From positions 107 to 64,106 of the forward strand of contig JAKALT010000005.1 in assembly GCA_021813125.1 (NCBI GenBank): a DNA stretch of 64,000 nt. Reading direction: 5' to 3'. Below, one piece after another: positions 9,207 through 52,102 of this stretch (position 1 is its first letter; each line of letters starts with the position of its first letter). The position numbers were made by a program, and so were the translations under genes. The notes under the pieces were generated by a model, which saw only the letters and a program-made list of their open reading frames with translations, did no database searches and had not been told where the DNA came from. The stretch comes from a bacterium. GTDB lineage: Bacteria > Patescibacteriota > Microgenomatia > Curtissbacterales > GWA2-41-24.

Positions 9207-9413
9207 TTAAGGAATTAAATCCTTAAGAGGTACTTTGAGAGCTAAAGCTATTTTGTGTAATGTCTTTAAAGAGGGGTTTCTTAAACCGCTTTCAATTTCG
9301 CTGATTGAAGTCAGATCCATCTTAGATTTTTCAGCTAATTGTAATTGGGATAGCTCTACCTTTTTCCTCAATTTTCTAATTCTCTCACCAACATTTTTGT
9401 AAATAGTAGCCAT
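9207..9413 (-). CDS. XRE-family helix-turn-helix transcriptional regulator
   Basis: 68 aa; RIRKLRKKVELSQLQLAEKSKMDLTSISEIESG is a typical HTH_XRE motif; 68 bp upstream of the 995-aa gene on the same strand. Confidence 0.7.
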   Translation of the reverse strand: MATIYKNVGERIRKLRKKVELSQLQLAEKSKMDLTSISEIESGLRNPSLKTLHKIALALKVPLKDLIP

Positions 9414-9583
9414 ACCATAACTAGTATGGTTTTTATGCCAAATTTAGTCTTTGGCACGGATGCCAAATTTACTGCTTGTTCTGAAGCCGAAACTTATTTA
9501 TAATTTTGCTGTAATATTGATCCGATTAGCCAATTCTGAGGGGATATTTGTATTTGGATAGACAAATAACTAATATATAACCG

Positions 9584-9590
9584 AAAGGAG
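9584..9590 (+). promoter_or_regulatory. Shine-Dalgarno (aaaggagg) for the DUF4352-like gene
   Basis: aaaggaggtgaaattaATG; 9-nt spacing to the ATG at 9600. Confidence 0.6.
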
Positions 9591-9599
9591 GTGAAATTA

Positions 9600-10163
9600 A
9601 TGGGAGATGAACCAAAAAAGAAGAACTTCTTTTTGAAGCACAAGGTCTTGTCTGTTGTTTTAGGTATTATTGTAATTTTAGTTGTACTTGCTGCTGCTGG
9701 TGGTGGTAAAAATAGCAACCAGGCCACAAATACACAGACAGCAAGCGAGAGTAAAACACAAACTAAGGAATCAGGCGATGTTACTCCTAAAGTAGGAGAC
9801 GTTACTAAGTTAGGTGATAGAGAGTTTGTTGTAAATTCTGTTAAAAGGTCAGGCGCATTTGGTTATAACACTCCTAAATCAGGTAAGGAGTACGTAATAG
9901 TAAACGTAACCATACGAAATTTAGGTAACAATGAAGTTTCATATAACCCTTTTGACTTTAAGGTACAGGATGCAAATGGTGCGCAGGAAAGCGAAGCTAT
10001 TGTTGTTCTCGATGATAGCTTAAACTCAGGTACCCTTGCAGCTGGAGGCAAAGTAACAGGTTCGATGCCATTCGAAGTTCCCGTAGGTGATGACGCTAAA
10101 TTGATATTCCAGCCAAGTTTCTGGAGTAGTCAAAGAGTGGTTGTAGATTTGGGTAGTAAATAG
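9600..10163 (+). CDS. Membrane-anchored DUF4352-like protein
   Basis: N-terminal TM helix (VLSVVLGIIVILVVLAAAGGG) then a beta-rich domain with YVIVNVTIRNLGNNEVSYNPFDFKVQDANG typical of DUF4352; ATG at 9600 preferred over the GTG at 9591 because of the RBS. Confidence 0.5.
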   Translation: MGDEPKKKNFFLKHKVLSVVLGIIVILVVLAAAGGGKNSNQATNTQTASESKTQTKESGDVTPKVGDVTKLGDREFVVNSVKRSGAFGYNTPKSGKEYVIVNVTIRNLGNNEVSYNPFDFKVQDANGAQESEAIVVLDDSLNSGTLAAGGKVTGSMPFEVPVGDDAKLIFQPSFWSSQRVVVDLGSK

Positions 10164-10395
10164 GTTAAAGACAGTAACAACGATTACATTTGGCGTGATG
10201 GAAAAGGTGGAGTAGGTGGTGGTGGAGAAGTCGTAAGACTTCCTGACACACTCTATGGTTATCCATTCTTCGAACAGAATGATCTTAACCAAAGCGAACT
10301 CTACTTTGGAGATTGGTCAATGTATATCATTGGAGATCGTCAAACTATGGCCGTTACTACAACGACCGAGATAATTAATTCCCTTAAAGTATACG

Positions 10396-10452
10396 TTAGT
10401 TTACGATAACTGACGACTTGACACGATCTTTTATTTGTGGTTCTATAAAATC
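10396..10452 (+). promoter_or_regulatory. Promoter/operator module 1 (TTGACAcgat...tatttgtg...tataaaat), immediately upstream of the HNH-like gene
   Basis: TTGACA at 10418-10423, AT-rich -10-like tctataaaat ending 10 bp before the ATG at 10453; near-duplicate of the module at 11098..11151. Confidence 0.5.
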
Positions 10453-11022
10453 ATGAAATTTCAAAAAGGTCATACAACAAATAAAGGCAGAATTCCATGG
10501 AACGAAGGTACAAAAGGTCTTTCAAAGGGTGGGAGGACAAGAAAGGATGACAAGATTCGTTGTACAGGTTGCGACCGTTTTTTTGATAGAGCTCCGAGTA
10601 GAATCGTGAAATACAATTTCCATGACACTGATTGTTTCAAAAAATATAGAAAAAATAACAAAAGGCGCCCTTGGGACTATGATGTGTATATAAAAAATTC
10701 AGGTGAGAATAACCATAATTTTAAAGGTATCATGGCTTGTTGCTCCTCCTTGCATAAATGGGTTAGATATCACAAAGGGAAACCAGCATTTTGTGTAGAC
10801 TGTGGAGCGACTAAGAATAATAATGAGAGAGATCTAGAATGGTCAAACCAAAGTGGGTTATATTTAGCCGATTTAGATGATTTTGTTGGGAGATGCTATG
10901 TTTGTCATAAAGAACATGACAAAAAATTAGGCTTTCCTAGAAAGAAGTCTTTTGATAAAAAAGGACACAGAATAGGAATAACTATCTTTGTCCCTTATGA
11001 ATACCGACGCAGAACCTTCTAA
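10453..11022 (+). CDS. Phage-type HNH-like endonuclease (Cys-rich), tentative
   Basis: N-terminal KGHTTNKGRIPWNEG and C-terminal CYVCHKEHD resemble phage HNH homing endonucleases; many Cys/His pairs; start at ATG 10453, in frame with ORF-track 10435. Confidence 0.4.
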   Translation: MKFQKGHTTNKGRIPWNEGTKGLSKGGRTRKDDKIRCTGCDRFFDRAPSRIVKYNFHDTDCFKKYRKNNKRRPWDYDVYIKNSGENNHNFKGIMACCSSLHKWVRYHKGKPAFCVDCGATKNNNERDLEWSNQSGLYLADLDDFVGRCYVCHKEHDKKLGFPRKKSFDKKGHRIGITIFVPYEYRRRTF

Positions 11023-11844: not shown

Positions 11845-13491
11845 ATGTTATCTGATTCAATTACTAATGACTTGGTCATATCTTCACAACCTCTAATTCC
11901 CGCTTTATATTGTCGCGTTAGCACAGGTCGTCAGGAGAATGAAAAAACAATTGACAGTCAGATCGATGAAATTATTACTAAAGCTGTTGGTGACGGCACA
12001 GAGATCCGGTCCGATTTAAGGTTTGTTGATAATGGCTGGCCAGGAGAATTATTAGCGCGTCCAGCACTTGACCAGCTTAGGGATGCAGCAACACGAGGAG
12101 AATTCAATGCCTTATATGTTTATGATTTAGGCAGGTTATCGAGATCTTTTTTGGATCAACTAATTCTACTTAAGGAACTTCAAGATCTTGAGATCAAAAT
12201 CATCTCATTACACGACATTAATGCAGAAAATGATGAGCAGGTTTTTGCGAGAAATGTTATGGGTTTATTCCATGATTTCGAGCGGAAAAAAATTGCCGAA
12301 AGAATGAGGCGAGGGAAACTTTTTAAAGCTCGAAGTGGAACGCTGATTAATGGACAATCCTTATACGGGTTTAACTATATTAAAAAAACTGATACTGAAC
12401 CTGCGCGTTGTGAAATTAATAAAGAGGAGGCCAGAGTAATTAGAATGATTTTCGATTGGGTAGGGAAAGAAGGTGCATCAACTAGAGAAGTCATTAAAAG
12501 GCTTTATGATTTAGGAATTTCACCTAGAAAAGGTAAAACTACATTTTGGACCCATGGACCAATCGTAAGACTATTAAGGGAAGAATCTTATGTGTCTGGA
12601 TATATTTATTACAATAAAAGCGAGGCTGTTGTTGCTAAGAAGCCTCTTAAAAACATTAAATATAAAAAAATTAAAAGGGGTAGCCGTAGAATGCGGCCAA
12701 GGGAAGATTGGATACCTTTTCAGGTTCCTAAAATTATTGAAGATAGAAACCTTTTTGATAAAGTCCAAAGGTTAATAGAATATAACAAAAACTTTGCCTC
12801 TAAAAAAAGAAAATACGATTATTTGCTTTCGGGTATAGCTTTTTGTGAATGTGGTGCCAAAAGGGTAGGAGATGGAATCGATAAAGACAATTTTTATTAC
12901 CGATGCGCCGAAAGACTATATAGATTTCCTCTAGAGAAAAAGTGCCATTCAAAGGGTATTAATGCGGCAGTTTTGGATAAAGTATTTTGGAATGAACTAC
13001 TAAAGTTTATAAACAATCCATCATTGATTAGACAGGCTGCAGAAAATTGGCTTAGAGAATCTGGCGATAATGATAAGGATAGGTTAGAAAAGCAGGAGTT
13101 GACTGAATTTATAGCAAGGGTAGACGATGAGGAACAGCGTTATGCCAAAGCTTACGGCGCAGGAGCCTTGGATTTTGAAAAGTTCAAGGAATTGATGAGG
13201 GGCACGAAGAGGAAGAAGGATGGTTACCAGCAACAACTCGATAATCTGAATAATAAAATTGCTAATCAAGGGATAGACAGTATTCAATTAGATGAGGTTG
13301 TGGAAGAAGCAGGGAGGGTTTTTCAGTCTTTAGAGCTGCAAGACAAAAAACAAATTGTTCGGGATATAATAACTAAAGTCATCGTGAAAGGAGGGCTTGA
13401 GGTAGAAGTAAGGGGAAGAATCCCGCTTTTTCCCTCAAATATGGGATATGAACTTAAAGGTTGGAATAGTTGGGTTGCCAAATGTTGGTAA
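11845..13491 (+). CDS. Large serine recombinase (resolvase catalytic domain + recombinase domain + zinc-ribbon/coiled-coil)
   Basis: N-terminal ALYCRVSTGRQENEKTIDSQ (catalytic Ser), YVYDLGRLSRS, zinc-ribbon Cys cluster CECGAKR...YYRCAE...KKCHSKG, C-terminal coiled coil; its 3' end overlaps ychF by 44 bp. Confidence 0.85.
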   Translation: MLSDSITNDLVISSQPLIPALYCRVSTGRQENEKTIDSQIDEIITKAVGDGTEIRSDLRFVDNGWPGELLARPALDQLRDAATRGEFNALYVYDLGRLSRSFLDQLILLKELQDLEIKIISLHDINAENDEQVFARNVMGLFHDFERKKIAERMRRGKLFKARSGTLINGQSLYGFNYIKKTDTEPARCEINKEEARVIRMIFDWVGKEGASTREVIKRLYDLGISPRKGKTTFWTHGPIVRLLREESYVSGYIYYNKSEAVVAKKPLKNIKYKKIKRGSRRMRPREDWIPFQVPKIIEDRNLFDKVQRLIEYNKNFASKKRKYDYLLSGIAFCECGAKRVGDGIDKDNFYYRCAERLYRFPLEKKCHSKGINAAVLDKVFWNELLKFINNPSLIRQAAENWLRESGDNDKDRLEKQELTEFIARVDDEEQRYAKAYGAGALDFEKFKELMRGTKRKKDGYQQQLDNLNNKIANQGIDSIQLDEVVEEAGRVFQSLELQDKKQIVRDIITKVIVKGGLEVEVRGRIPLFPSNMGYELKGWNSWVAKCW

Positions 13492-17354: not shown

Positions 17355-18505
17355 AGAACATAAATTTTCCTAAAACCCAGGTTAACTTAAAAGCCACAAA
17401 GGCGACCTTGCTTGTGCTGGCCGTTGCGGTTTGGATAATCAGTGTCATTGCCGTTGCAAGGTATTTAGGCAAGTTGCCGGGCGTCACGGAGCAGGGCCAA
17501 GAAAAGCAAACAACAAAGATTGTAAGTGAAGAATCGGATATTATAAGTGTCGTCAAAAAAGTTTCGCCTTCGGTTGTTTCGATTGCCGTAGGTAATCAGC
17601 AGACGTTGAATTTTTTTGGCATGCCTGTTGGCAGCCCAAATCAGGAATCAGGGATTGGAACGGGGTTTGTGGTTTCGGCAGACGGGCTCATTATGACCAA
17701 TAAACATGTTGTTTCGCAGGACAACCAGAAATATATTGCAATAATTAAAAACAATGACGGAACCGAAAAGAAATACGATATCACTCAAATAAACAGGGAT
17801 CCTTTTAACGATTTAGCAATAGTTAAAATAGATGCAACTGGTCTTACTCCGGTTGACATGGGAGATTCCGGTAATTTACAGGTTGGACAAACGGTTATTG
17901 CAATCGGTAATGCGCTGGGACAGTTTGAAAATACGGTGACAACAGGTGTTGTTTCGGGGCTAGGCAGGGGAGTTAGTCCGTTTGACCCGTCAACAGGAAT
18001 TTCCGAAAAACTTGATGATTTGATCCAGACCGATGCGGCAATTAACCCCGGTAACTCCGGAGGGCCGCTTGTTAATAGTTCTGGGCAGGTAATTGGGATT
18101 AACACGGCTGTTGCCTCTGCCCAAAATATCGGATTTGCGCTGAAGATTAATACGGCAAAGCAGCTGCTTTCCGATTTCAAAAGCAGCGGTGGCAAAATTT
18201 CCAGACCATTTTTGGGAATTCAGTATACACATATACAAAAGGATGTAGCACTTTTGAATGGTGTTCCACAGGGAGAGCTTGTAAGACAGGTTGTTCCCGG
18301 ATCTGCTGCGGATAAAGCAGGAATAGAAGTTGGAGATATAATTTCCGATTTTGATGGGCAAAAGCTGACAGACGAAAATACACTTACAAATATTATTCGC
18401 AGCAAAAAAGTTGGAGACCAGGTGAGACTGAAGGTTTACAGGGAAAATAAATCCCTGGATCTTACGATAACTTTGGGCGAAGCCCCGACCGGCGGATCTC
18501 AATAA
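17351..18505 (+). CDS. HtrA/DegP-family trypsin-like serine protease with PDZ domain
   Basis: GTGFVVSADGLIMTNKHVV (His), DLAIVKI (Asp), NPGNSGGPLVNSSGQVIGINTA (Ser); C-terminal PDZ; ATGA overlap with ctp. Confidence 0.85.
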   Translation: MKNINFPKTQVNLKATKATLLVLAVAVWIISVIAVARYLGKLPGVTEQGQEKQTTKIVSEESDIISVVKKVSPSVVSIAVGNQQTLNFFGMPVGSPNQESGIGTGFVVSADGLIMTNKHVVSQDNQKYIAIIKNNDGTEKKYDITQINRDPFNDLAIVKIDATGLTPVDMGDSGNLQVGQTVIAIGNALGQFENTVTTGVVSGLGRGVSPFDPSTGISEKLDDLIQTDAAINPGNSGGPLVNSSGQVIGINTAVASAQNIGFALKINTAKQLLSDFKSSGGKISRPFLGIQYTHIQKDVALLNGVPQGELVRQVVPGSAADKAGIEVGDIISDFDGQKLTDENTLTNIIRSKKVGDQVRLKVYRENKSLDLTITLGEAPTGGSQ

Positions 18506-18990
18506 GTGTGTGTAAGAAAAGTTAGAATTCCGCCGAAAAATTTTCCGATTGCAAAGTATACATTTGCCCAGATGAAAGCGGCAATTGCCGTATAAAACCA
18601 AAAGGTTTTGTAATCGATTTTAAAGGTGCCGGCTGCAATTGGGTTGATAATGCGAAGTCCGGGGACTAAACGGCCGATTGCAATTGCCGTGCCGCCGTGT
18701 TTTTTAAACCAACTTTCCACCTTCTTCAACTTTTCCGGGGTAAAGCGAATATATTTGCCGTATTTTTTAACGAGCGGATTTCCGATTTTTCGGGACACGG
18801 TAAATAGGATTGTTGAGCCAATAAGTGTTGCCAATACGACTGTTGGAACAATAATGAAATAATTCGATTTAGGAAGAGCCGCCGCCGCGGCAATGAAAAT
18901 GTCGCCAGGAATAGGAATTGGAACACCGGCTTCTTCTGCAAAAATTATAAAAAATAATCCTAAATAAGAATATTGTGATAGTATTTCCAT
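18499..18990 (-). CDS. DedA-family (VTT/SNARE-associated) membrane protein
   Basis: MEILSQYSYLGLFFIIFAEEAGVPIPIPGDIF...; start moved to the internal Met (18990) because the ORF-track start at 19119 would overlap the divergent HAD gene by ~100 bp. Confidence 0.65.
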   Translation of the reverse strand: MEILSQYSYLGLFFIIFAEEAGVPIPIPGDIFIAAAAALPKSNYFIIVPTVVLATLIGSTILFTVSRKIGNPLVKKYGKYIRFTPEKLKKVESWFKKHGGTAIAIGRLVPGLRIINPIAAGTFKIDYKTFWFYTAIAAFIWANVYFAIGKFFGGILTFLTHTY

Positions 18991-19011
18991 TAAAATAATA
19001 ATACACGAAAT

Positions 19012-19665
19012 ATGAAACTTTTTGTTTGGGATTTCCACGGAACGCTTGAGAAGGGAAACGAAAAAGCGGTTTTGGAGATAACGAATAAAATTCTTAGGGA
19101 CAGTGGCTACGACCGCCAAATGTCTGTAGATGAAAACTCAACTCTTTACGGTAAAAAATGGTATGAGTATTTTCAATATCTTTTGCCGAAGGAGAGTTTG
19201 GACAGGTGTCTGGATCTACAAAGAAAATGTGTGGAGTATGAAAATAAGCACCAGGATATTGTCAGAAATTTTATTAAACAAAATGATTATGCCAATGTGG
19301 TACTGTCAAAAATTAAAGATGCAGGTCACGACCAGATTTTAATTACCAATACTGCAAAAGTGGCCTTTATGATGTTTGTGCAAATTGTGGGGATAAGTGA
19401 GATTTTTCCAATCGGTAAGAAATCTTTTACTACAAATCTGCATCAAAAACATTCAACTTTAACTAAAAGGCAAGTTTTGGAAAATTATTTAAAAGGCAAA
19501 AATTTCAATAAAATTATTGTTGTAGGAGATAGGGGATCGGATGTTGAACTAGCCGGATTTGTGGGTGGAACTTCTTATTTATATGCGCACCCCGGAAAAG
19601 ATTTTTTTGAATGTCTCGCTGACTATAAAATCAGAGATTTAAGGAAAATTTTGGCAGAACTTTAA
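19012..19665 (+). CDS. HAD-superfamily hydrolase-like protein
   Basis: N-terminal motif I-like FVWDFHGTL and C-terminal VVGDRGSDVELA (motif IV-like). Confidence 0.45.
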   Translation: MKLFVWDFHGTLEKGNEKAVLEITNKILRDSGYDRQMSVDENSTLYGKKWYEYFQYLLPKESLDRCLDLQRKCVEYENKHQDIVRNFIKQNDYANVVLSKIKDAGHDQILITNTAKVAFMMFVQIVGISEIFPIGKKSFTTNLHQKHSTLTKRQVLENYLKGKNFNKIIVVGDRGSDVELAGFVGGTSYLYAHPGKDFFECLADYKIRDLRKILAEL

Positions 19666-19800
19666 TTAGTTTTAGGAGTTTTCTTTTAGAGTTTCTACGA
19701 TTTTTTCTAAATTACCATCCATAACGCCTGCTCTTCGATAAGGATAATGAGAAATAGGCCGAAGTAAGAATAGTGTTAAAAGGATAGCACATAATATTAG

Positions 19801-21252
19801 TTAGAATCCTCTTTGGTTAGGGGGCTTTAACTTAAAAATTTTAGTTTTATATCCGGAATATTCACCAATTATTTTTGAAGAAAGGGAGTTTTTTTCTAAA
19901 TATTGTTCTGTGTAATCAGGAAAAACAAACAAAGCGTTCAGGACAATGTAATCGGACGAATTTAGGATGCCTCTGTATTTATCAAGTTGTGTAGGGCCAG
20001 GCGGGAATTCGTAAAATTTTAAACCATTCTTGCCTCTTAATGCCAGATAAGGATCGGGAATTACGGACAAAAATACAGTGCTGTTTGGTTCAATGTTTTC
20101 CGAAATGTTTTTTGTGAAGCTGGCGAAGTTAAAATTACTGTTGTAGATAATCATTTTTGAAAAAATGATATTAAAGCTTATAAAGGCGATTATGAGGAGC
20201 AATGTGTAAATTCCTGTTTGTTTTATGATACCCGACTCTTCCTTTGCGTTTTTTAAAAGTGATATCAATATCAAGGCTAAAAAGGGTTGAAAGTAAAGAA
20301 AATACCATTGTTCTTTGCTGAAGATTACTGTGGTAGCAGAAATAATAAATCCTGCAAGAAGGAAGTAATTTTTTAAGCTGCGATTTTTATAGACATGGAG
20401 TGCAAAAATGAATAAAGCGATTAAACATAAAATGATTAAAATTTGCCATTGTCCGTCACCCCATCTATGTAATACCCAAGATTTTACAGCTGCTTTTTTA
20501 GCAAGATGCATTTGCATTTGCGCTATGAAAATATTTAATGTTTTTATAATTGTCAAAAACCATATTACAAAACCTAATGCTACAGGGAGCGAGAAAAATA
20601 ATATTGCATTAACTTTTTCCCGAAATTTTATACTGGAAAGTAAAATTGATAAAGCAATTATTGCCGGTGCAAGAAGCGCAATTACATGAGACAAGATAGC
20701 CAGTGAACAAAAAATGCCGCTACAGAGGTAGAGTTTTTTGTTTGTTGAGTTTAAGGCATTTAGAATGATTAAAAATGAGCATAGGATGAAAAAGAATGCA
20801 AGGATATCCATTCTTCCAATTCTTGATGACTGGTTGAAGTTGGGATCAATGGAAAGTAATAAGGTGGCCAAAGTTGCGTAATAATAGGTGTTGAAAATAT
20901 GTTTTGCGATCAAAAAGAAAACTGCAAGCGAAAAAATTCCTAGTAGTAACGACAGTGCCCTAACGGCAATTATTGAGGTTCCAAAAGTGTTAGTCCAGAT
21001 TGAGAGGAAATAGGAATACATTGGAGGTTGCCAAACTGCATATTGCGACATTCCTGGAATTGTATCCTTAAACAGAATGGTCGAAAAAGTACCTTTAGTA
21101 GAAAAGTTATTTGCAATATCCAAAAATATGCCTTCATCTGGCCAGGGCAGGGGGTCTTTAAGATATAAGAGGCTTGAGAATATTAAAAATGGGGTTATTG
21201 CCAATAGGAAAAGCAGTACAATCTTGATTTTCTCTTGCCATTTTTGAGCCAT
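19801..21252 (-). CDS. ArnT/PMT-like (GT-C fold) integral membrane glycosyltransferase
   Basis: 483 aa, ~12 predicted TM helices, GT83/GT39-like N-terminal region (GRMDILAFFFIL, ...). Confidence 0.5.
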   Translation of the reverse strand: MAQKWQEKIKIVLLFLLAITPFLIFSSLLYLKDPLPWPDEGIFLDIANNFSTKGTFSTILFKDTIPGMSQYAVWQPPMYSYFLSIWTNTFGTSIIAVRALSLLLGIFSLAVFFLIAKHIFNTYYYATLATLLLSIDPNFNQSSRIGRMDILAFFFILCSFLIILNALNSTNKKLYLCSGIFCSLAILSHVIALLAPAIIALSILLSSIKFREKVNAILFFSLPVALGFVIWFLTIIKTLNIFIAQMQMHLAKKAAVKSWVLHRWGDGQWQILIILCLIALFIFALHVYKNRSLKNYFLLAGFIISATTVIFSKEQWYFLYFQPFLALILISLLKNAKEESGIIKQTGIYTLLLIIAFISFNIIFSKMIIYNSNFNFASFTKNISENIEPNSTVFLSVIPDPYLALRGKNGLKFYEFPPGPTQLDKYRGILNSSDYIVLNALFVFPDYTEQYLEKNSLSSKIIGEYSGYKTKIFKLKPPNQRGF

Positions 21253-21367
21253 GTTTTATCTGACTAAGATAGAGTATCTTACGAATTGCTTAATCCGTCG
21301 CGTTTTCCAAATGAATATCAACTGATTTTACCAGTATTGATAAATTTAAGGAAATCTTATGCTGAAG

Positions 21368-22288
21368 TTATTGGCTCTTTGGTTCGGTTTTTAAAGTATC
21401 GAAGATTTTTTCTAAATTACCATCCATAACACCTGCGATGTTGCCCCAGGATTTGCCAATTCGGTGATCTGTTACCCTGTCTTGCGGAAAGTTGTAGGTG
21501 CGGATTTTTTCACTGCGGTCACCGGTTCCAAGTTGTGTTGATCTGGATGCTGAAAGTTCCTGGTGAGTACGTTCTTCTTCCAAAGCGAACAATCGGGCAC
21601 GCAAGATTTCCATGGCGATTTCGCGGTTTTGGGCTTGGGACCTTTCCGTTTGAGCTTTGACAACAATGCCTGTTGGGATGTGTTTAATACGGACTGCCGT
21701 TGACACTTTGTTGACGTTCTGGCCGCCGTGGCCACCAGACCGGAAAGCTTCAAATTCAATATCTGCAGGACTTATAACTACTTCTGTCTGGCCGACTTCT
21801 GCTAAGACTGCAACAGTTGCAGTTGAGGTGTGAATACGGCCGGAAGATTCTGTTTTTGGAACGCGCTGTACCCTATGGACACCGGATTCAAATTTCAGTT
21901 TATCCCAAACATTTTTACCGCTTACCTTGTAAACAACCTCTTTTATGTTTCCGATTCCGCCTTCGTTTTTGTCCAGTTCATCGACTCGCCAGTTTTGGGA
22001 AGCAGCGTATTTGGTGTACATGCGGGCAAGATCACCTGCAAAAAGCCCGGCTTCATCGCCGCCGGCTGCAGCCCGGATTTCCAAAATTACGGAGTTTGCA
22101 CCCGGTTGCCCTTCCACAACTTCCGGTTTCTGGTAAAGCGCATTTTCAAGCTGGTTTTTTTGCTCTGTCAGATTTTTAATTTCTTCAGCGGCCAGATCTG
22201 CCATAGAAGGATCTGAAGCAGCTAGGTTTTCTGCATCTTTGATTTTTAATTCCAGATCTTCGATTTGTTTTTTCAGATAATCGCTCAT
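21368..22288 (-). CDS. prfA: Peptide chain release factor 1
   Basis: GGQ motif SGGHGGQNVNKVSTAVRIKH; RVQRVPKTESSGRIHTS (P-x-T type tripeptide region, RF1-like). Confidence 0.8.
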   Translation of the reverse strand: MSDYLKKQIEDLELKIKDAENLAASDPSMADLAAEEIKNLTEQKNQLENALYQKPEVVEGQPGANSVILEIRAAAGGDEAGLFAGDLARMYTKYAASQNWRVDELDKNEGGIGNIKEVVYKVSGKNVWDKLKFESGVHRVQRVPKTESSGRIHTSTATVAVLAEVGQTEVVISPADIEFEAFRSGGHGGQNVNKVSTAVRIKHIPTGIVVKAQTERSQAQNREIAMEILRARLFALEEERTHQELSASRSTQLGTGDRSEKIRTYNFPQDRVTDHRIGKSWGNIAGVMDGNLEKIFDTLKTEPKSQ

Positions 22289-22345
22289 AAGTCTAAGGTA
22301 TCAAAAGTTATAAAAGCATCAAAGGGATCAAATGTGAATTGGTAG

Positions 22346-22657
22346 CTAAGAGGCGGCTTGCTTTTTGGCAAGCTCCAACATTTCTTTGAGGGATTCCGGC
22401 CTTTTTCTTTCTTCTTTTTCCTCTAATTTTTGAGTTTTTTGGGCAATATGAGCTTTTGCGCGTTCCTGGCTTTTTTGGAATTTTTCAACACGGCCAAGTG
22501 TGTCCACGTACTTCATTTCGCCGGTGAAAAATGGGTGGCATTTGTTGCAAATTTCAACCCTAATTTCGGGCATAGTTGAGCCGGTTGTAAAAGTGTTGCC
22601 GCAAATGCAGACGACTTTGGCGTCATCAAAGTATTGCGGATGGATATTGGTTTTCAT
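22346..22657 (-). CDS. rpmE: 50S ribosomal protein L31 with C-terminal extension
   Basis: [28 protein letters not shown]...KCHPFFTG. Confidence 0.9.
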
Positions 22658-45526: not shown

Positions 45527-45572
45527 AATGAGATCTACAAATCCATCCTAAATTCCAAGCCCCATTTTTTGG
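45527..45572 (-). pseudogene. Displaced duplicate of the GNAT gene 3' end (minus strand encodes KKWGLEFRMDL*)
   Basis: 36-bp identity tacaaatccatcctaaattccaagccccattttttg with 45797..45832. Confidence 0.7.
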
Positions 45573-45576
45573 GAAC

Positions 45577-45783
45577 TTACTTTTTAGAATTAGGGAGAGA
45601 TTTTTGCAAATATTTATCTGCCAAGAACATTACAATCATTGCAACAATTACTGCAAACGAAAGTGCACCGTAAGATTGAGCTGGTTCTAATTTGGGGAGC
45701 AGAATACTAAATACCCACATCACTACTACCATGGTTATCCAACCGATAAGCAAATCAATGATAAGTCTCATTAAGTTCTTCAT
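45577..45783 (-). CDS. Small 2-TM membrane protein (68 aa) between the GNAT gene and its duplicated 3' end
   Basis: MKNLMRLIIDLLIGWITMVVVMWVFSILLPKLEPAQSYGALSFAVIVAMIVMFLADKYL... Confidence 0.45.
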   Translation of the reverse strand: MKNLMRLIIDLLIGWITMVVVMWVFSILLPKLEPAQSYGALSFAVIVAMIVMFLADKYLQKSLPNSKK

Positions 45784-45795
45784 AGTTTTAAATTA

Positions 45796-46224
45796 TTACA
45801 AATCCATCCTAAATTCCAAGCCCCATTTTTTGAAGCCTAATTTTTCGTAGAGCTTGTGTGCGTCGGTGCGGTCGGTCCCGGATGTGAAGAGGATTTTATA
45901 GCAGTTTCTGGCACGGGCAAGTTCGAAAATTTTATCAAACATTTTTGTGCCGATACCCTGGCCGCGGGTGGACTCATCGACCACCAAACCTTCCAATAAG
46001 GCATAAGGGCGACTCCTAATTGGTACTTCTATATAATATATGGCGGCTGTTGCTGCGACTTTTCCAGATTCATCCCTGGCTACCAAGACATCACAGGTAT
46101 CGTCGGCAAGCTGTTTTTCTAAAGCATCTCTTGCTCCGTCTGCAATTTTTTCGGTGCGGTAAATTTGGGTTTGAAGATTTAAGATTGCGTCGATGTCAGC
46201 AGGTGTTGCGATTGCTATTTCCAT
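45796..46224 (-). CDS. GNAT-family N-acetyltransferase
   Basis: LVVDESTRGQGIGTKMFDKIFELARARNCYKILFTS; start at MEIAIATP (46224) rather than the long ORF-track extension. Confidence 0.75.
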   Translation of the reverse strand: MEIAIATPADIDAILNLQTQIYRTEKIADGARDALEKQLADDTCDVLVARDESGKVAATAAIYYIEVPIRSRPYALLEGLVVDESTRGQGIGTKMFDKIFELARARNCYKILFTSGTDRTDAHKLYEKLGFKKWGLEFRMDL

Positions 46225-46280
46225 GAGGATATTGTAAATGATTTGCCCACAACAATCCAAGTTTATGATAAAATTTCCAG

Positions 46281-47516
46281 GTGAAGTTATACGAATTTGA
46301 AGGCCACAACCTTTTTTCAAAAGTAGGAATTGCGAGCCCTTTTTTTGTGGCTTGTTCCAATATGGATGAAGTGGAGCAGGCAAGAAAGCGTTTGAAATTC
46401 CCGATAGTTGCCAAGGTTCAGGTGCTTTCCGGCAAGCGCGGAAAAGGCGGGGGGATAAAGATTTGCACAAACGAAAAACAACTAAATGATTTTTGTCGTG
46501 GAATGTTTGGAGCAGAATTTAGTGGGGAAGGGGTACGATTTATATCTCTTGCCGAAAAAGCGCAAATCGAGGGCGAATATTATGCTTCCATAACTTATGA
46601 CACAACTTTGAAAATTCCATTTCTTTTGTTTTCCAAAAGCGGGGGAATGGATATAGAAGAGGTTAAAAAGAATTCACCGGAGGAAATTTTAAGGTTTGAC
46701 ATAAACCCTTTTTCGGGTCCAGACAAAACGAATCTTTCAAAAAAATTAAAAGACGAAACGCTGGCGGATTTCTTAATTAGGCTTTGGGATGCGTTTATAA
46801 GATACGATTGCCGGCTGGTTGAGGTTAATCCTGTCGCAAAGGTTGGAGACGATTATCTGGCTGTTGATGCCAAGATAATTTTGGATGATGCAGGCCTTGC
46901 AAGGCATCGAGATTTGGATGTATTGCAAAAGGGTTCTGCAGGCGCTATTCCGACGGAGCGGGAACTTGCGGCCCGAAAAATCGATGAAGAAGATTATCGC
47001 GGTAGTGCGGGTTCGACATTTATAGAATTCGGCGGGGATATTGCGGTTTTGGCGTCCGGCGGCGGCGCATCACTTCTGGTAATGGATGCCCTGTCTGAAG
47101 CAGGCGGAAAACCTTCTAACTACACCGAATATTCCGGAAATCCGCCGAGAGAAAAAGTAGAGAAGCTTACAAAAATCACATTGTCAAAAGAAGGTCTAAG
47201 CGGCTGTTTGGTTTGCGGGGCTGTTGCAAATTTTACGGATATTTATGAAACGCTGGCGGGTTTTGCCGATGGACTGGCGGAAGTAAAACCGAAACCTGAT
47301 TATCCGATTGTTATTCGTCGCGGTGGGCCAAGGCAAAAGGAAGCTTACGAAATGCTGGAGAAGTTAGCAAAAAAAGAAGGTTTTGATATTCATCTTTTTG
47401 GGCCGGAAACACCGATTTCGGTTGCATGCCGGGAAATGGTTAGGCTTTCTGAGAAATTCAAATCCAGTGAAAAAGGTCAGGCCTTTTTACAAGAAGTATC
47501 AAAGGTTAAGGCCTGA
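46281..47516 (+). CDS. sucC: Succinyl-CoA-synthetase beta-subunit-like ATP-grasp protein (could be citryl-CoA synthetase large subunit); GTG start
   Basis: KLYEFEGHNLFSKVGI...VAKVQVLSGKRGKGGGIKIC matches the SucC N-terminal ATP-grasp; C-terminal CoA-ligase domain; 3' end contains a REP-like element. Confidence 0.7.
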   Translation: MKLYEFEGHNLFSKVGIASPFFVACSNMDEVEQARKRLKFPIVAKVQVLSGKRGKGGGIKICTNEKQLNDFCRGMFGAEFSGEGVRFISLAEKAQIEGEYYASITYDTTLKIPFLLFSKSGGMDIEEVKKNSPEEILRFDINPFSGPDKTNLSKKLKDETLADFLIRLWDAFIRYDCRLVEVNPVAKVGDDYLAVDAKIILDDAGLARHRDLDVLQKGSAGAIPTERELAARKIDEEDYRGSAGSTFIEFGGDIAVLASGGGASLLVMDALSEAGGKPSNYTEYSGNPPREKVEKLTKITLSKEGLSGCLVCGAVANFTDIYETLAGFADGLAEVKPKPDYPIVIRRGGPRQKEAYEMLEKLAKKEGFDIHLFGPETPISVACREMVRLSEKFKSSEKGQAFLQEVSKVKA

Positions 47517-50368: not shown

Positions 50369-51228
50369 TGCAGGCGTATATCAAATGGTGTAGGGAAGTG
50401 AAGCTAAATATATTTCCAAACCCGATTAAATCGGTTTCAAAGATAACAAAATACGAAATAACCAAGCGGCAAAGGTTTATTCTGATGTCGTTTTTTTTGA
50501 CCGCGATTTTAATTGCAGCCCAAACGGTTTCGGAATCTGTGCGCTACCAGGTAATGGTCTTTTTGGCATTTGCCACAACGCTTCTTGCGGTTTTTGCCCT
50601 TTGGGGTGAACTCTCCGGCTTAAAATATTTCCTGCTTCTATTGCTGCCTGTTTATTTCGTGACAGGTGCGACGCTTTTTTACTTTTTACTGCCTGTTCGA
50701 TGGATAACACGTTTACCGTTTGCTTTAGCATTTGGAATTTCGGTTTATCTTTTAATGCTGACTTCCAATATCTATAATGTGGCGGCAATACGAACGATTG
50801 CGCTACTTCGGGCAGCGCATGCGGTTGGACACCTTTTTTCGCTTGTCGCTACCTTTTTTTTGTTGAATGTTTTATTTTCGCTCCATCTTTCGATATTTTT
50901 GACAGTTGCGGGGGTCGTTGCGGTTTGCGGACCGATATATCTTGTTAACTTATGGTCGTTTGGGCTTGAGGATTATATTACCCAGAAGGTTTTTGGGCAC
51001 ACTGTTGTTTTTACCCTTGTGACGGCGCAAGTTGCTTCTGTTTTTGCTTTTTGGCCCTTGGCACCTATCAACGCTTCGCTTGTGGTAATTACAGCCATGT
51101 ATGTACTTTTGGGGCTAGGGCAGTTTGTGTTTCACGAAAAGTTAAAGCCCAGAATAGTTTGGGAACATTTGTCTGTAGCTCTCGTCGTGGCTGTGATTAT
51201 TATGATCTCTTCAAGGTGGGGTGGATAA
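50344..51228 (+). CDS. Hypothetical polytopic membrane protein
   Basis: 294 aa, ~8 TM helices. Confidence 0.45.
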   Translation: MLVQRPAFMQAYIKWCREVKLNIFPNPIKSVSKITKYEITKRQRFILMSFFLTAILIAAQTVSESVRYQVMVFLAFATTLLAVFALWGELSGLKYFLLLLLPVYFVTGATLFYFLLPVRWITRLPFALAFGISVYLLMLTSNIYNVAAIRTIALLRAAHAVGHLFSLVATFFLLNVLFSLHLSIFLTVAGVVAVCGPIYLVNLWSFGLEDYITQKVFGHTVVFTLVTAQVASVFAFWPLAPINASLVVITAMYVLLGLGQFVFHEKLKPRIVWEHLSVALVVAVIIMISSRWGG

Positions 51229-51232
51229 TATT

Positions 51233-51301
51233 AAGTGATAAGTGATAAGTGATAAGTGATAAGTGATAAGTGATAAGTGATAAGTGATAAGTGATAAGTG
51301 A
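51233..51301. repeat. Heptanucleotide microsatellite (GTGATAA)x~9.5
   Basis: ttaagtgataagtgataagtgataag...gtgagg; a degenerate partial copy (gataagtgataagtaaaaagtgataag) lies at 51691..51718. Confidence 0.9.
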
Positions 51302-52102
51302 GGCCTATAGTATCTATAAGGGAAGAGGTAAATTTTAGTCTTTTTTCTTCTAAAATGGAAAAACTCCCAGCCACAAATTAGCTTCAAATATTTTTCAAGA
51401 AAAAGTGGGGATAGAAGAGATGGGGAAGAGGAATGGGTGATATAGTGTGATATAGTTATAGTTTTGCGAAATCGTGAAAAAGGGTAACGTGAAAATTACA
51501 GAACTATGTAAATTCCCGCATTTAAACATAAATAAATATGTATGGATGCACTGGAAGGACAGAGGACTATAAGGCTTCTACTCTACGTAAGAAAGTCTTA
51601 CATTTCTCATTGGCATGCCGACAAGTTAATTGCTAAAAGGTTAAAAAGTGCCGTTTTAGGCTTTTTTGGGGAAGGGCCATTTTTGAAGCGATAAGTGATA
51701 AGTAAAAAGTGATAAGTTATTTTATTCTTTTATAATTTTCCTCCCTATATTCCCCATGGTGGGGGCCAATTTCCTATTAGCTACTGCGTCGCACAATGAT
51801 ACTTTTGCGACGCGAGGTGAAGCTGAGAGAGGGGGTCGAGTTTATCAACGTTTCGAATATTTGCTGAGTTTCTTATTTTTAACTTTTTGTAATTTCTCTG
51901 CTTTTTCATTTTTCCCCGTTTTTTCATCGCAGATCAATTTCGATCCACTTATCCCCTTTTGATTATAAATAGTTCTTTTTAGGGTTAGATTGATTAGAAT
52001 TGATCCACAAGCAGTAGCCCATTTATCATCTATGTTTATAAAAAGCCGTTTTAGGGGCTATCAGCGGCTCGGCGTGGCTAAAATGTGGCTAAATATAGGT
52101 AA

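Follow-up and report, generated by a model that had tools for sequence, protein, structure and literature searches.

A displaced prfA 3' end and a glycosyltransferase gene of a related lineage mark a probable gene-transfer scar in a Curtissbacterales genome

The window analysed here is a stretch of 64,000 nucleotides (nt) from contig JAKALT010000005.1 (GenBank assembly GCA_021813125.1) of a bacterium of the order Curtissbacterales (Patescibacteriota). It contains prfA, the gene for peptide chain release factor 1 (RF1), whose 3' end is present a second time about 1.7 kb downstream, beyond a gene for a membrane glycosyltransferase (GT) of the GT-C fold (Table 1). Behind the second copy lie a gene for a HAD-family hydrolase, which is convergent with the original prfA end and separated from its stop codon by only 6 nt (stop to stop), and an intact gene of the VTT/DedA family. 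RF1 is short throughout the clade (300-316 amino acids, aa), and its match to the PCRF model begins at model position 43, so that the usual N-terminal part is apparently missing.

A repeat search of the window recovers the two prfA ends as a direct repeat of 48 nt (19684-19731 and 21389-21436) with 43/48 identical positions (90%) and a spacing of 1705. Its core, GATTTTTTCTAAATTACCATCCATAACRCCTGC, comprises 33 nt; in a pattern search allowing up to three mismatches, it occurs at two sites only (19699-19731 and 21404-21436, identical at 32/33 positions), and 100 dinucleotide-preserving shuffles contain no match. The duplication of the prfA 3' end, which the initial annotation had proposed from the letters alone, is therefore borne out, although its positions had been given about 2 nt off and its identity as 32/34 instead of 32/33. 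The minus-strand readings are as claimed there: the downstream fragment reads AGVMDGNLEKIVETLKENS and the resident prfA end AGVMDGNLEKIFDTLKTEPKSQ, each followed by a stop codon. The match between the copies is not of low complexity, and the 483-aa gene situated between them does encode a GT-C glycosyltransferase, with Pfam matches above the curated thresholds (PMT_2, 50.7 bits for a cut-off of 26.1; PMT, 38.2 bits for a cut-off of 22.7). The whole arrangement is found on the independently assembled contigs L001 and L002, while L003 extends over prfA and no further than the beginning of GT (three samples).

A search of species-representative genomes with the prfA protein assigns the window to Candidatus Curtissbacteria (Microgenomates). 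The surroundings of prfA are well conserved. In about 80 loci, the genes follow the order HisS-like, EamA, L31, prfA, a variable interval and VTT/DedA, beyond which HtrA and CtpA are encoded on the other strand; the content of the interval between prfA and VTT varies from species to species. In most close relatives (L004, L093, and L094), VTT stands directly after prfA. In the sister species L064 (also seen as L085; prfA 88% identical at the aa level), an intact prfA runs into a convergent HAD gene, and the order is prfA, HAD, GT, VTT. The same abutment of an intact prfA and HAD is present in L096 and L097 (prfA 81%). In L091 (prfA 85%), the GT gene is absent: prfA is followed by a HAD pseudogene with an internal deletion and then by VTT, and the spacer between the starts of HAD and VTT resembles that of the window. 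HAD homologues beyond L064 (e.g., P0006) are found in unrelated loci.

Aligned with L064, the window falls into two pieces. Positions 19731-19012, which include the prfA fragment and HAD, match L064 8853-9568 as a single piece (70% over 723 nt), and positions 22399-21399, which include the body of prfA, match L064 7871-8890. On L064, 38 nt (8853-8890) belong to both pieces, which implies that the window has an insertion of about 1.67 kb accompanied by a short target duplication relative to L064. The tail of the fragment is most similar to the L096 tail (30/39 positions, 77%), as against 20/39 (51%) for the resident tail of the window itself. These alignments identify the downstream copy as the original end of prfA, now displaced.

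The insert resembles a different relative. Among 5.8e9 proteins, the GT has only two homologues at E<1e-30, one from L084 (P0002; 74-75% aa identity) and one from L064 (58%). The L084 contig contains the end of prfA, GT, VTT, and HtrA, with neither HAD nor a prfA fragment, and window positions 21506-19733 align to L084 1-1776 without a break (blastn; 78.7% over 1,782 nt). The chromosomal prfA-GT-VTT locus of L084 accounts, in collinear order, for the whole insert (19732-21403), with no DNA left over for an element. The insert consists of the GT gene and gene remnants only and encodes no recombinase.

Genes on both sides of the insert show the reverse affinity. Compared with L085, the aa identities are 84% for HisS, 88% for EamA, 90% for L31, 88% for prfA, 92% for HtrA, and 87% for CtpA, whereas the same genes reach 67-86% in the L084 clade (L091, L093, and L094); for prfA, 88% with L064/L085 contrasts with 82-85% in that clade. 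The VTT of L084 is 91% identical to that of L093 and 66.5% identical to that of the window. At the DNA level, the fragment tail and the sequence downstream of it follow L096 and L085 (77%), while the resident tail and the spacer behind it follow L084 (74% and 83%, respectively), the resident tail being only 50-59% identical to other relatives. As the flanks on both sides are closest to L085 and the GT is closest to L084 (74-75%, as against 58% for L085), the backbone appears to be of the L064/L096 type and the stretch 19732-21403 to be imported.

Table 1. Features of the prfA-VTT region of the window
Feature	Position	Strand	Evidence or remarks
prfA, peptide chain release factor 1, 306 aa	21368-22288	-	Pfam PCRF 1.7e-50, RF-1 3.7e-40
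Resident 33-nt core, prfA codons 285-295 (AGVMDGNLEKI)	21404-21436	-	32/33 identical to 19699-19731; 75-84% identical to any relative
Putatively imported prfA tail of L084 type (FDTLKTEPKSQ and stop)	21368-21403	-	Collinear with the L084 prfA end
Putatively imported intergenic spacer	21253-21367	-	Collinear with L084, ~83% identical (mismatch count in alignment)
Probable HAD 3'-end remnant in the spacer (LRKSYAEV vs LRKILAEL)	~21312-21367	-	Smith-Waterman and repeat search; weak
GT-C fold membrane glycosyltransferase, 483 aa, cargo of the block	19801-21252	-	Pfam PMT_2 3e-13, PMT 1.5e-9
VTT/DedA 5' remnant of L084 type, first ~21 codons; distal end of the block	19732-19790	-	HYSYFGLFLIILIEE vs L084 VTT MLSFFEHYSYFGLFLIIFIEEAGVP
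9-nt microhomology GCAGGCGTT (Ala-Gly-Val)	19723-19731	-	L084 VTT codons 22-24 vs prfA codons 285-287
Displaced native prfA 3' end (AGVMDGNLEKIVETLKENS and stop), attached to no gene	19672-19731	-	Collinear with the L064 prfA end and HAD
HAD-family hydrolase, recipient-type backbone	19012-19665	+	Pfam HAD_2/Hydrolase; top homologue L064 HAD, 67%
Intact VTT/DedA-family gene, 163 aa, recipient-type backbone	18499-18990	-	Pfam VTT_dom; 74% aa identity to L085 vs 66.5% to L084
Whole inserted block, 1,672 nt: tail, spacer, GT, and VTT 5' remnant	19732-21403	-	

The two ends of the insert carry traces of neighboring genes, both of which also surface as collinear repeats that had gone unreported. The distal one is the beginning of an L084-type VTT gene, which carries one stop codon and a 1-nt deletion. 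Its Smith-Waterman score against the VTT of L084 is 77.5 (shuffles, 18.7 +/- 3.3; 0/300 reach the score), and the repeat search picks it up independently against the intact VTT of the window (19732-19776 and 18932-18976, 71%). At the other end, the spacer behind the resident tail contains a probable remnant of a HAD 3' end. A Smith-Waterman extension of 21312-21436 against 19608-19731 gives a flank-only score of 30.5 (shuffles, 20.6 +/- 3.3; 9/500 reach the score), and the repeat search finds the remnant as well, in register with the 3' end of HAD (19637-19662 and 21344-21369; 26 nt, 77%).

The composition of the GT gene, another check suggested by the initial annotation, turned out to be uninformative. 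Its GC content (0.341) and its GC content at third codon positions (GC3, 0.343) compare with means of 0.414 and 0.380 for the genes of the window, the GC3 value lying within one standard deviation of these genes. Both homologues from other genomes (n=2) are equally low (GC 0.34-0.35), so the low GC is a property of the gene or its protein rather than a sign of foreign origin.

Both joints of the block can be followed at the base level. At the distal one, the VTT of L084 reads GAAGAAGCAGGCGTTCCC (E-E-A-G-V-P) and prfA reads ATCGCAGGYGTTATGGAT (I-A-G-V-M-D), whereas the window has GAAG-AGCAGGCGTTATGGAT (GAAG-AGCAGGCGTTATGGATGG). The VTT remnant is therefore joined to codon 285 of prfA within the 9-nt GCAGGCGTT. 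The chance that a random joint would share at least 9 nt is about 4e-5, and GCAGGCGTT occurs once in the window. At the proximal joint, the sequence switches from L064-like to L084-like at the prfA core. The two copies in the window are identical at 32/33 positions in the core and at 14/27 directly after it (Fisher p=4e-5), a drop as expected at a recombination joint. The homologous joint is thus placed, by sequence comparison, in the 33-nt core or at its 3' edge, its exact position being deduced. The alignments establish the anatomy of the locus, the two junction sequences, and its mosaic of two parents.

It is probable that a block of the chromosome of a related Curtissbacterium was acquired by homologous recombination anchored in prfA and closed at a microhomology, without a mobile element and with no integrase, att site, or transposase taking part. 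We infer the order of events, the entry route of the DNA, and the enzymes involved. In the ancestor of the recipient, prfA would have run into the convergent HAD, followed by VTT/DedA. DNA from a Curtissbacterium of the L084 type (prfA, HAD remnant, GT, and VTT) would then have entered the cell, plausibly by natural transformation. One joint might have formed by homologous recombination in the conserved 3' region of prfA, at the 33-nt core, and the other by illegitimate recombination at GCAGGCGTT, where codons 22-24 of the donor VTT would have met codons 285-287 of the recipient prfA. The outcome would be an insertion of 1,672 nt, by which prfA came to end in the 11-residue tail of the donor and the cell gained the GT-C glycosyltransferase. 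The last 20 codons of the recipient prfA, now behind a VTT remnant of about 60 nt, would have been shifted 1.7 kb downstream and be non-functional. Linear DNA, as in homology-facilitated illegitimate recombination, and a circle closed at the microhomology and integrated by a single crossover would match the structure equally well.

Homology-facilitated illegitimate recombination makes use of microhomologies of 3-10 bp and is known from Acinetobacter baylyi, Streptococcus pneumoniae, and Pseudomonas stutzeri (summarised in PMC6382021). The locus resembles it in having one joint in a shared gene and the other at a 9-nt microhomology of unrelated sequences, with chromosomal DNA of a relative as the donor. 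Unlike the experimental cases, the present one is deduced from genome comparison in an uncultivated bacterium of the Candidate Phyla Radiation (CPR); moreover, instead of a deletion in the recipient, there is a duplication of 33 nt, as the illegitimate joint again lies within the anchor gene. In Escherichia coli, duplications arise via single crossovers of deleted circles, and most of these events duplicated part of the homologous segment (PMC3240628), as is also seen here. Natural competence and recombination genes have been reported in other Patescibacteria (PMC10633639, PMC12455944).

Several points weigh against this reconstruction. The GT comparison is based on three sequences, and the nearest sequence of the donor type, L084, is a 2.5-kb contig with no more than about 79% identity to the block. 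No insert-free strain of the species was found, the clusters of prfA, HAD, and VTT at 90% having one member each. The near-identity of the core has more than one explanation: the target may have been duplicated, the donor may have had the same sequence in this stretch, or gene conversion may have followed. The six bases that follow the resident core, TTCGAT, resemble TTCGAC of L064 and neither CTGGAA of L084 nor GTAGAA of the fragment, a likeness predicted by no simple version of the model. Finally, the assignment of the HAD remnant is weak (p about 0.02).

The initial annotation had taken the duplicated end for a gene-3'-end integration footprint. Comparison with the sister species does place the GT gene in an insertion within the 3' end of prfA, with the native end displaced and prfA running on an imported tail, but it gives no support to an integrase-type mechanism. 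Integrative elements and prophages insert at the 3' ends of tRNA, tmRNA, or protein genes, with a replacement 3' end carried in attP. Like them, the insert is flanked by a direct repeat and keeps the target gene whole by means of a surrogate end; unlike them, it lacks an integrase, element-specific DNA, and a conserved att boundary, its surrogate end is the prfA end of the donor, and its far end is a fragment of a neighboring gene. It is very unlikely that the structure is what remains of a site-specific element whose tyrosine or serine integrase was lost or acted in trans, with the prfA end as the attP surrogate and the repeats of 33-48 nt as attL and attR. The direct repeat at both ends of the insert and the restored 3' end of the gene would suit such an origin, and so would the displaced prfA ends in seven other Curtissbacteria species, four of which share a small conserved insert. 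However, the 33-nt repeat at both boundaries does not discriminate, because a single homologous crossover yields the same feature, and all of the inserted DNA, including the VTT 5' remnant, is collinear with the chromosome of a relative. The distal joint is a microhomology shared by the coding sequences of two unrelated genes, and species differ in the codon at which the displaced fragment begins (285 in the window, about 258 in L012 and L019, and about 266 in L005, L010, L016, and L020). The only recombinase gene, that for a large serine recombinase (11845-13491), could be cited in favor of such an origin but is 6 kb off, past the syntenic core genes S6, SSB, S18, CtpA, and HtrA; enzymes of this kind are not known to leave long direct repeats. 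An artificial origin, namely an assembly chimera of two co-occurring Curtissbacteria strains, is extremely unlikely. The species of the window and that of L064 do come from the same assembly set (ERZ272375xx) of short-read metagenome assemblies, yet the identical full structure is found on two independent contigs (L001 and L002), to which L003 adds the part from prfA to GT. Furthermore, the shared stretches of 33 and 9 nt are far below the k=141 of the contig names, and the 9 nt at the joint of the VTT remnant and prfA cannot come from k-mer overlap.

Two other histories would produce the same single novel junction between a VTT 5' part and a prfA 3' part. One is tandem duplication followed by random loss, by which changes of gene order are explained most familiarly in mitochondrial genomes. 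In an ancestor with prfA, HAD, GT, and VTT, the stretch from codon 285 of prfA to codon 21 of VTT would have been duplicated at the microhomology, after which HAD was lost from the first copy and GT from the second. Such a course would account for the exchanged positions of HAD and GT relative to L064, whose order is prfA, HAD, GT, VTT, for partial gene remnants at the boundaries, and for the possible HAD remnant behind the resident tail. Nevertheless, it is unlikely, as the two copies trace to different lineages. The two tails are only 51% identical to each other, and their best counterparts are in L096 (77%, fragment tail) and L084 (74%, resident tail). The VTT remnant is nearer to the VTT of L084 than to that of the window (Smith-Waterman scores of 77.5 and 39; 71% identity to its own), and the GT is nearer to L084 than to the sister L064, opposite to all flanking genes. 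In addition, the HAD remnant is also present in L084, outside the clade of the window and L064, and no GT remnant is found between HAD and VTT. The polarity could also be reversed: a recipient of the L084 type (prfA, GT, VTT) might have gained the prfA fragment, HAD, and the genes downstream from a donor like L064 or L096, anchored in VTT or HtrA. Relative to L084, the extra DNA indeed consists of the fragment and HAD between repeats of the VTT 5' end. This course is quite unlikely, since L064-like genes are found on both sides (HisS, EamA, and L31 upstream; HtrA and CtpA downstream), which makes the L084-like DNA a short internal piece.

The import of a prfA-anchored block also has parallels in the displacement of C-termini. 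C-terminal displacement is known from rhs loci, and for the acquisition of rhs tips, single-crossover integration of circles has been proposed (PMC2935791); effector genes of type VI secretion systems (T6SS) undergo sequential displacement (PMC5361080). As in these loci, the 5' body of prfA keeps working with a new 3' tip and its cargo, while the old tip is orphaned downstream; arrays can arise when the process recurs, and eight Curtissbacteria species have displaced prfA tips. Unlike the rhs and T6SS genes, prfA encodes a housekeeping factor and not a polymorphic toxin, and its cargo is a glycosyltransferase instead of an immunity gene. The prfA tip (11-20 residues) is probably functionally neutral, and selection for tip diversity is not evident.

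When each locus was scanned with its own prfA tail, orphan prfA ends were detected downstream of prfA in L005, L010, L013, L016, and L020 (50-81 nt off), L012 (1.1 kb), and L019 (0.5 kb), which together with the window makes 8 of about 20 species. The same scan found no comparable ends upstream of prfA and none in more distant clades. In L005, the orphan has the clade-typical IGKSWGNIAGVMDGNL and the resident tail is of another type, which again indicates a displaced native end. The orphan of L012 is preceded by the spacer and the start codon of a VTT of the L010 type (score 62, as against 25 for the null), and the cargo before it is common to L010; the junction is of the same VTT 5' to prfA 3' type as in the window. 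Only the VTT remnant of L012 is significant; none above the null was found before the displaced fragments of L005, L010, L013, L016, L019, and L020.

The L012 locus (8987-10860) contains two stacked prfA-VTT alleles. The resident tail is followed by open reading frames (ORFs) of 161 aa and 146 aa (shared with L010), the spacer and ATG of a VTT gene, the orphan prfA end (codons ~258-300), an ORF of 206 aa, and the intact VTT. In L018 (9482-15289), the three large ORFs (514, 734, and 691 aa) of a 6-kb insertion between VTT and HtrA have no counterpart at the other Curtissbacteria loci.

Four species share another arrangement (L016:8898-8992, L020:8901-8993, L010:3419-3503, and L005:6968-7016). 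A resident tail of the form INKSWH[DN]LE.I[ML]EGNL is followed by a non-coding stretch that is conserved and by a native prfA fragment, still open and differing from species to species, that begins at PQDRVTDHRI. The resident tails of L010, L016, and L020 end in DFASPT(NIAA) and a stop codon, and the non-coding stretch of L016 and L020 holds an additional GC-rich palindrome of 36 nt. The small insert common to the four species, i.e., the surrogate RF1 tail and the non-coding stretch, amounts to about 180-215 nt; the non-coding stretch is 97-100% identical in L016 and L020, while the genes of these species are about 70% identical. Searches with Rfam in the window (18900-22400) and in L016 (8700-9300) gave no match at E<=1. 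A tRNA and tmRNA scan detected none close to the site, either in the window or at nine related loci, promoter and terminator scans found nothing above the expectation from shuffles, and the sole hit of a metagenome scan for the non-coding sequence conserved in L016/L020 was a further copy of L020. Conceivably, the small insert represents either a structured RNA or a dedicated mobile cassette in miniature.

Given the recurrence in related species, prfA may act in this lineage as an anchor for recombination at a variable, surface-related locus. A stronger claim is that the region from the 3' end of prfA to the 5' end of VTT is a lineage-wide hotspot at which whole alleles of other species are stacked by C-terminal displacement of a housekeeping gene. 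If the small insert were indeed such a cassette or RNA, the event in the window would be one instance of a directed process and not an accident. This reading is rather unlikely.

The feature is a real but fairly ordinary scar of gene transfer and another example of a known process. Its value is that base-level evidence, drawn from the two junctions and from the gene arrangements of the two parents, makes it probable that an uncultivated CPR bacterium acquired a cell-surface glycosyltransferase from a neighboring species without a mobile element. It also illustrates that a duplicated gene 3' end alone does not signal an integrase, as a conserved gene bordering a variable region gives the same footprint. 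The presence of a GT-C enzyme beside a DedA-family protein and a HAD phosphatase suggests what we presume to be a small, exchangeable module for lipid-linked glycosylation.

Several other features of the window deserve mention. Another 3'-end duplication in the same genome concerns a GNAT acetyltransferase gene (45796-46470, minus strand), whose last ~36 nt and flanking bases are repeated 261 nt downstream (45536-45584 and 45797-45845; 88% over 49 nt), adjoining an ORF of 138 aa with a very low GC3 (0.237). The large serine recombinase at 11845-13491 (548 aa; Resolvase, Recombinase, and Zn_ribbon_recom) overlaps the start of ychF, and in L085 no such gene is present in the stretch seen at the equivalent place. 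Near the beginning of the window, three copies of a non-coding repeat of about 131 nt (21-151, 1719-1849, and 4966-5096; 71-89% identical) bracket pairs of genes reminiscent of a defence island: DUF3800, a SWIM zinc finger protein, an ORF of 605 aa with no Pfam match, a zeta toxin, and a TIR-domain protein on the opposite strand. This repeat family does not read as an efp end, and the efp case to which the initial annotation refers was not found. Heptamer arrays of TAAGTGA are located at 51218-51308 and 51671-51719, downstream of an ORF that ends at 51228. Two large neighboring genes (54556-57696 and 57740-60709) match each other at their 3' ends (57337-57695 and 60350-60708) with 88-94% identity along some 335 nt, which suggests a tandem pair of paralogues with recent gene conversion.

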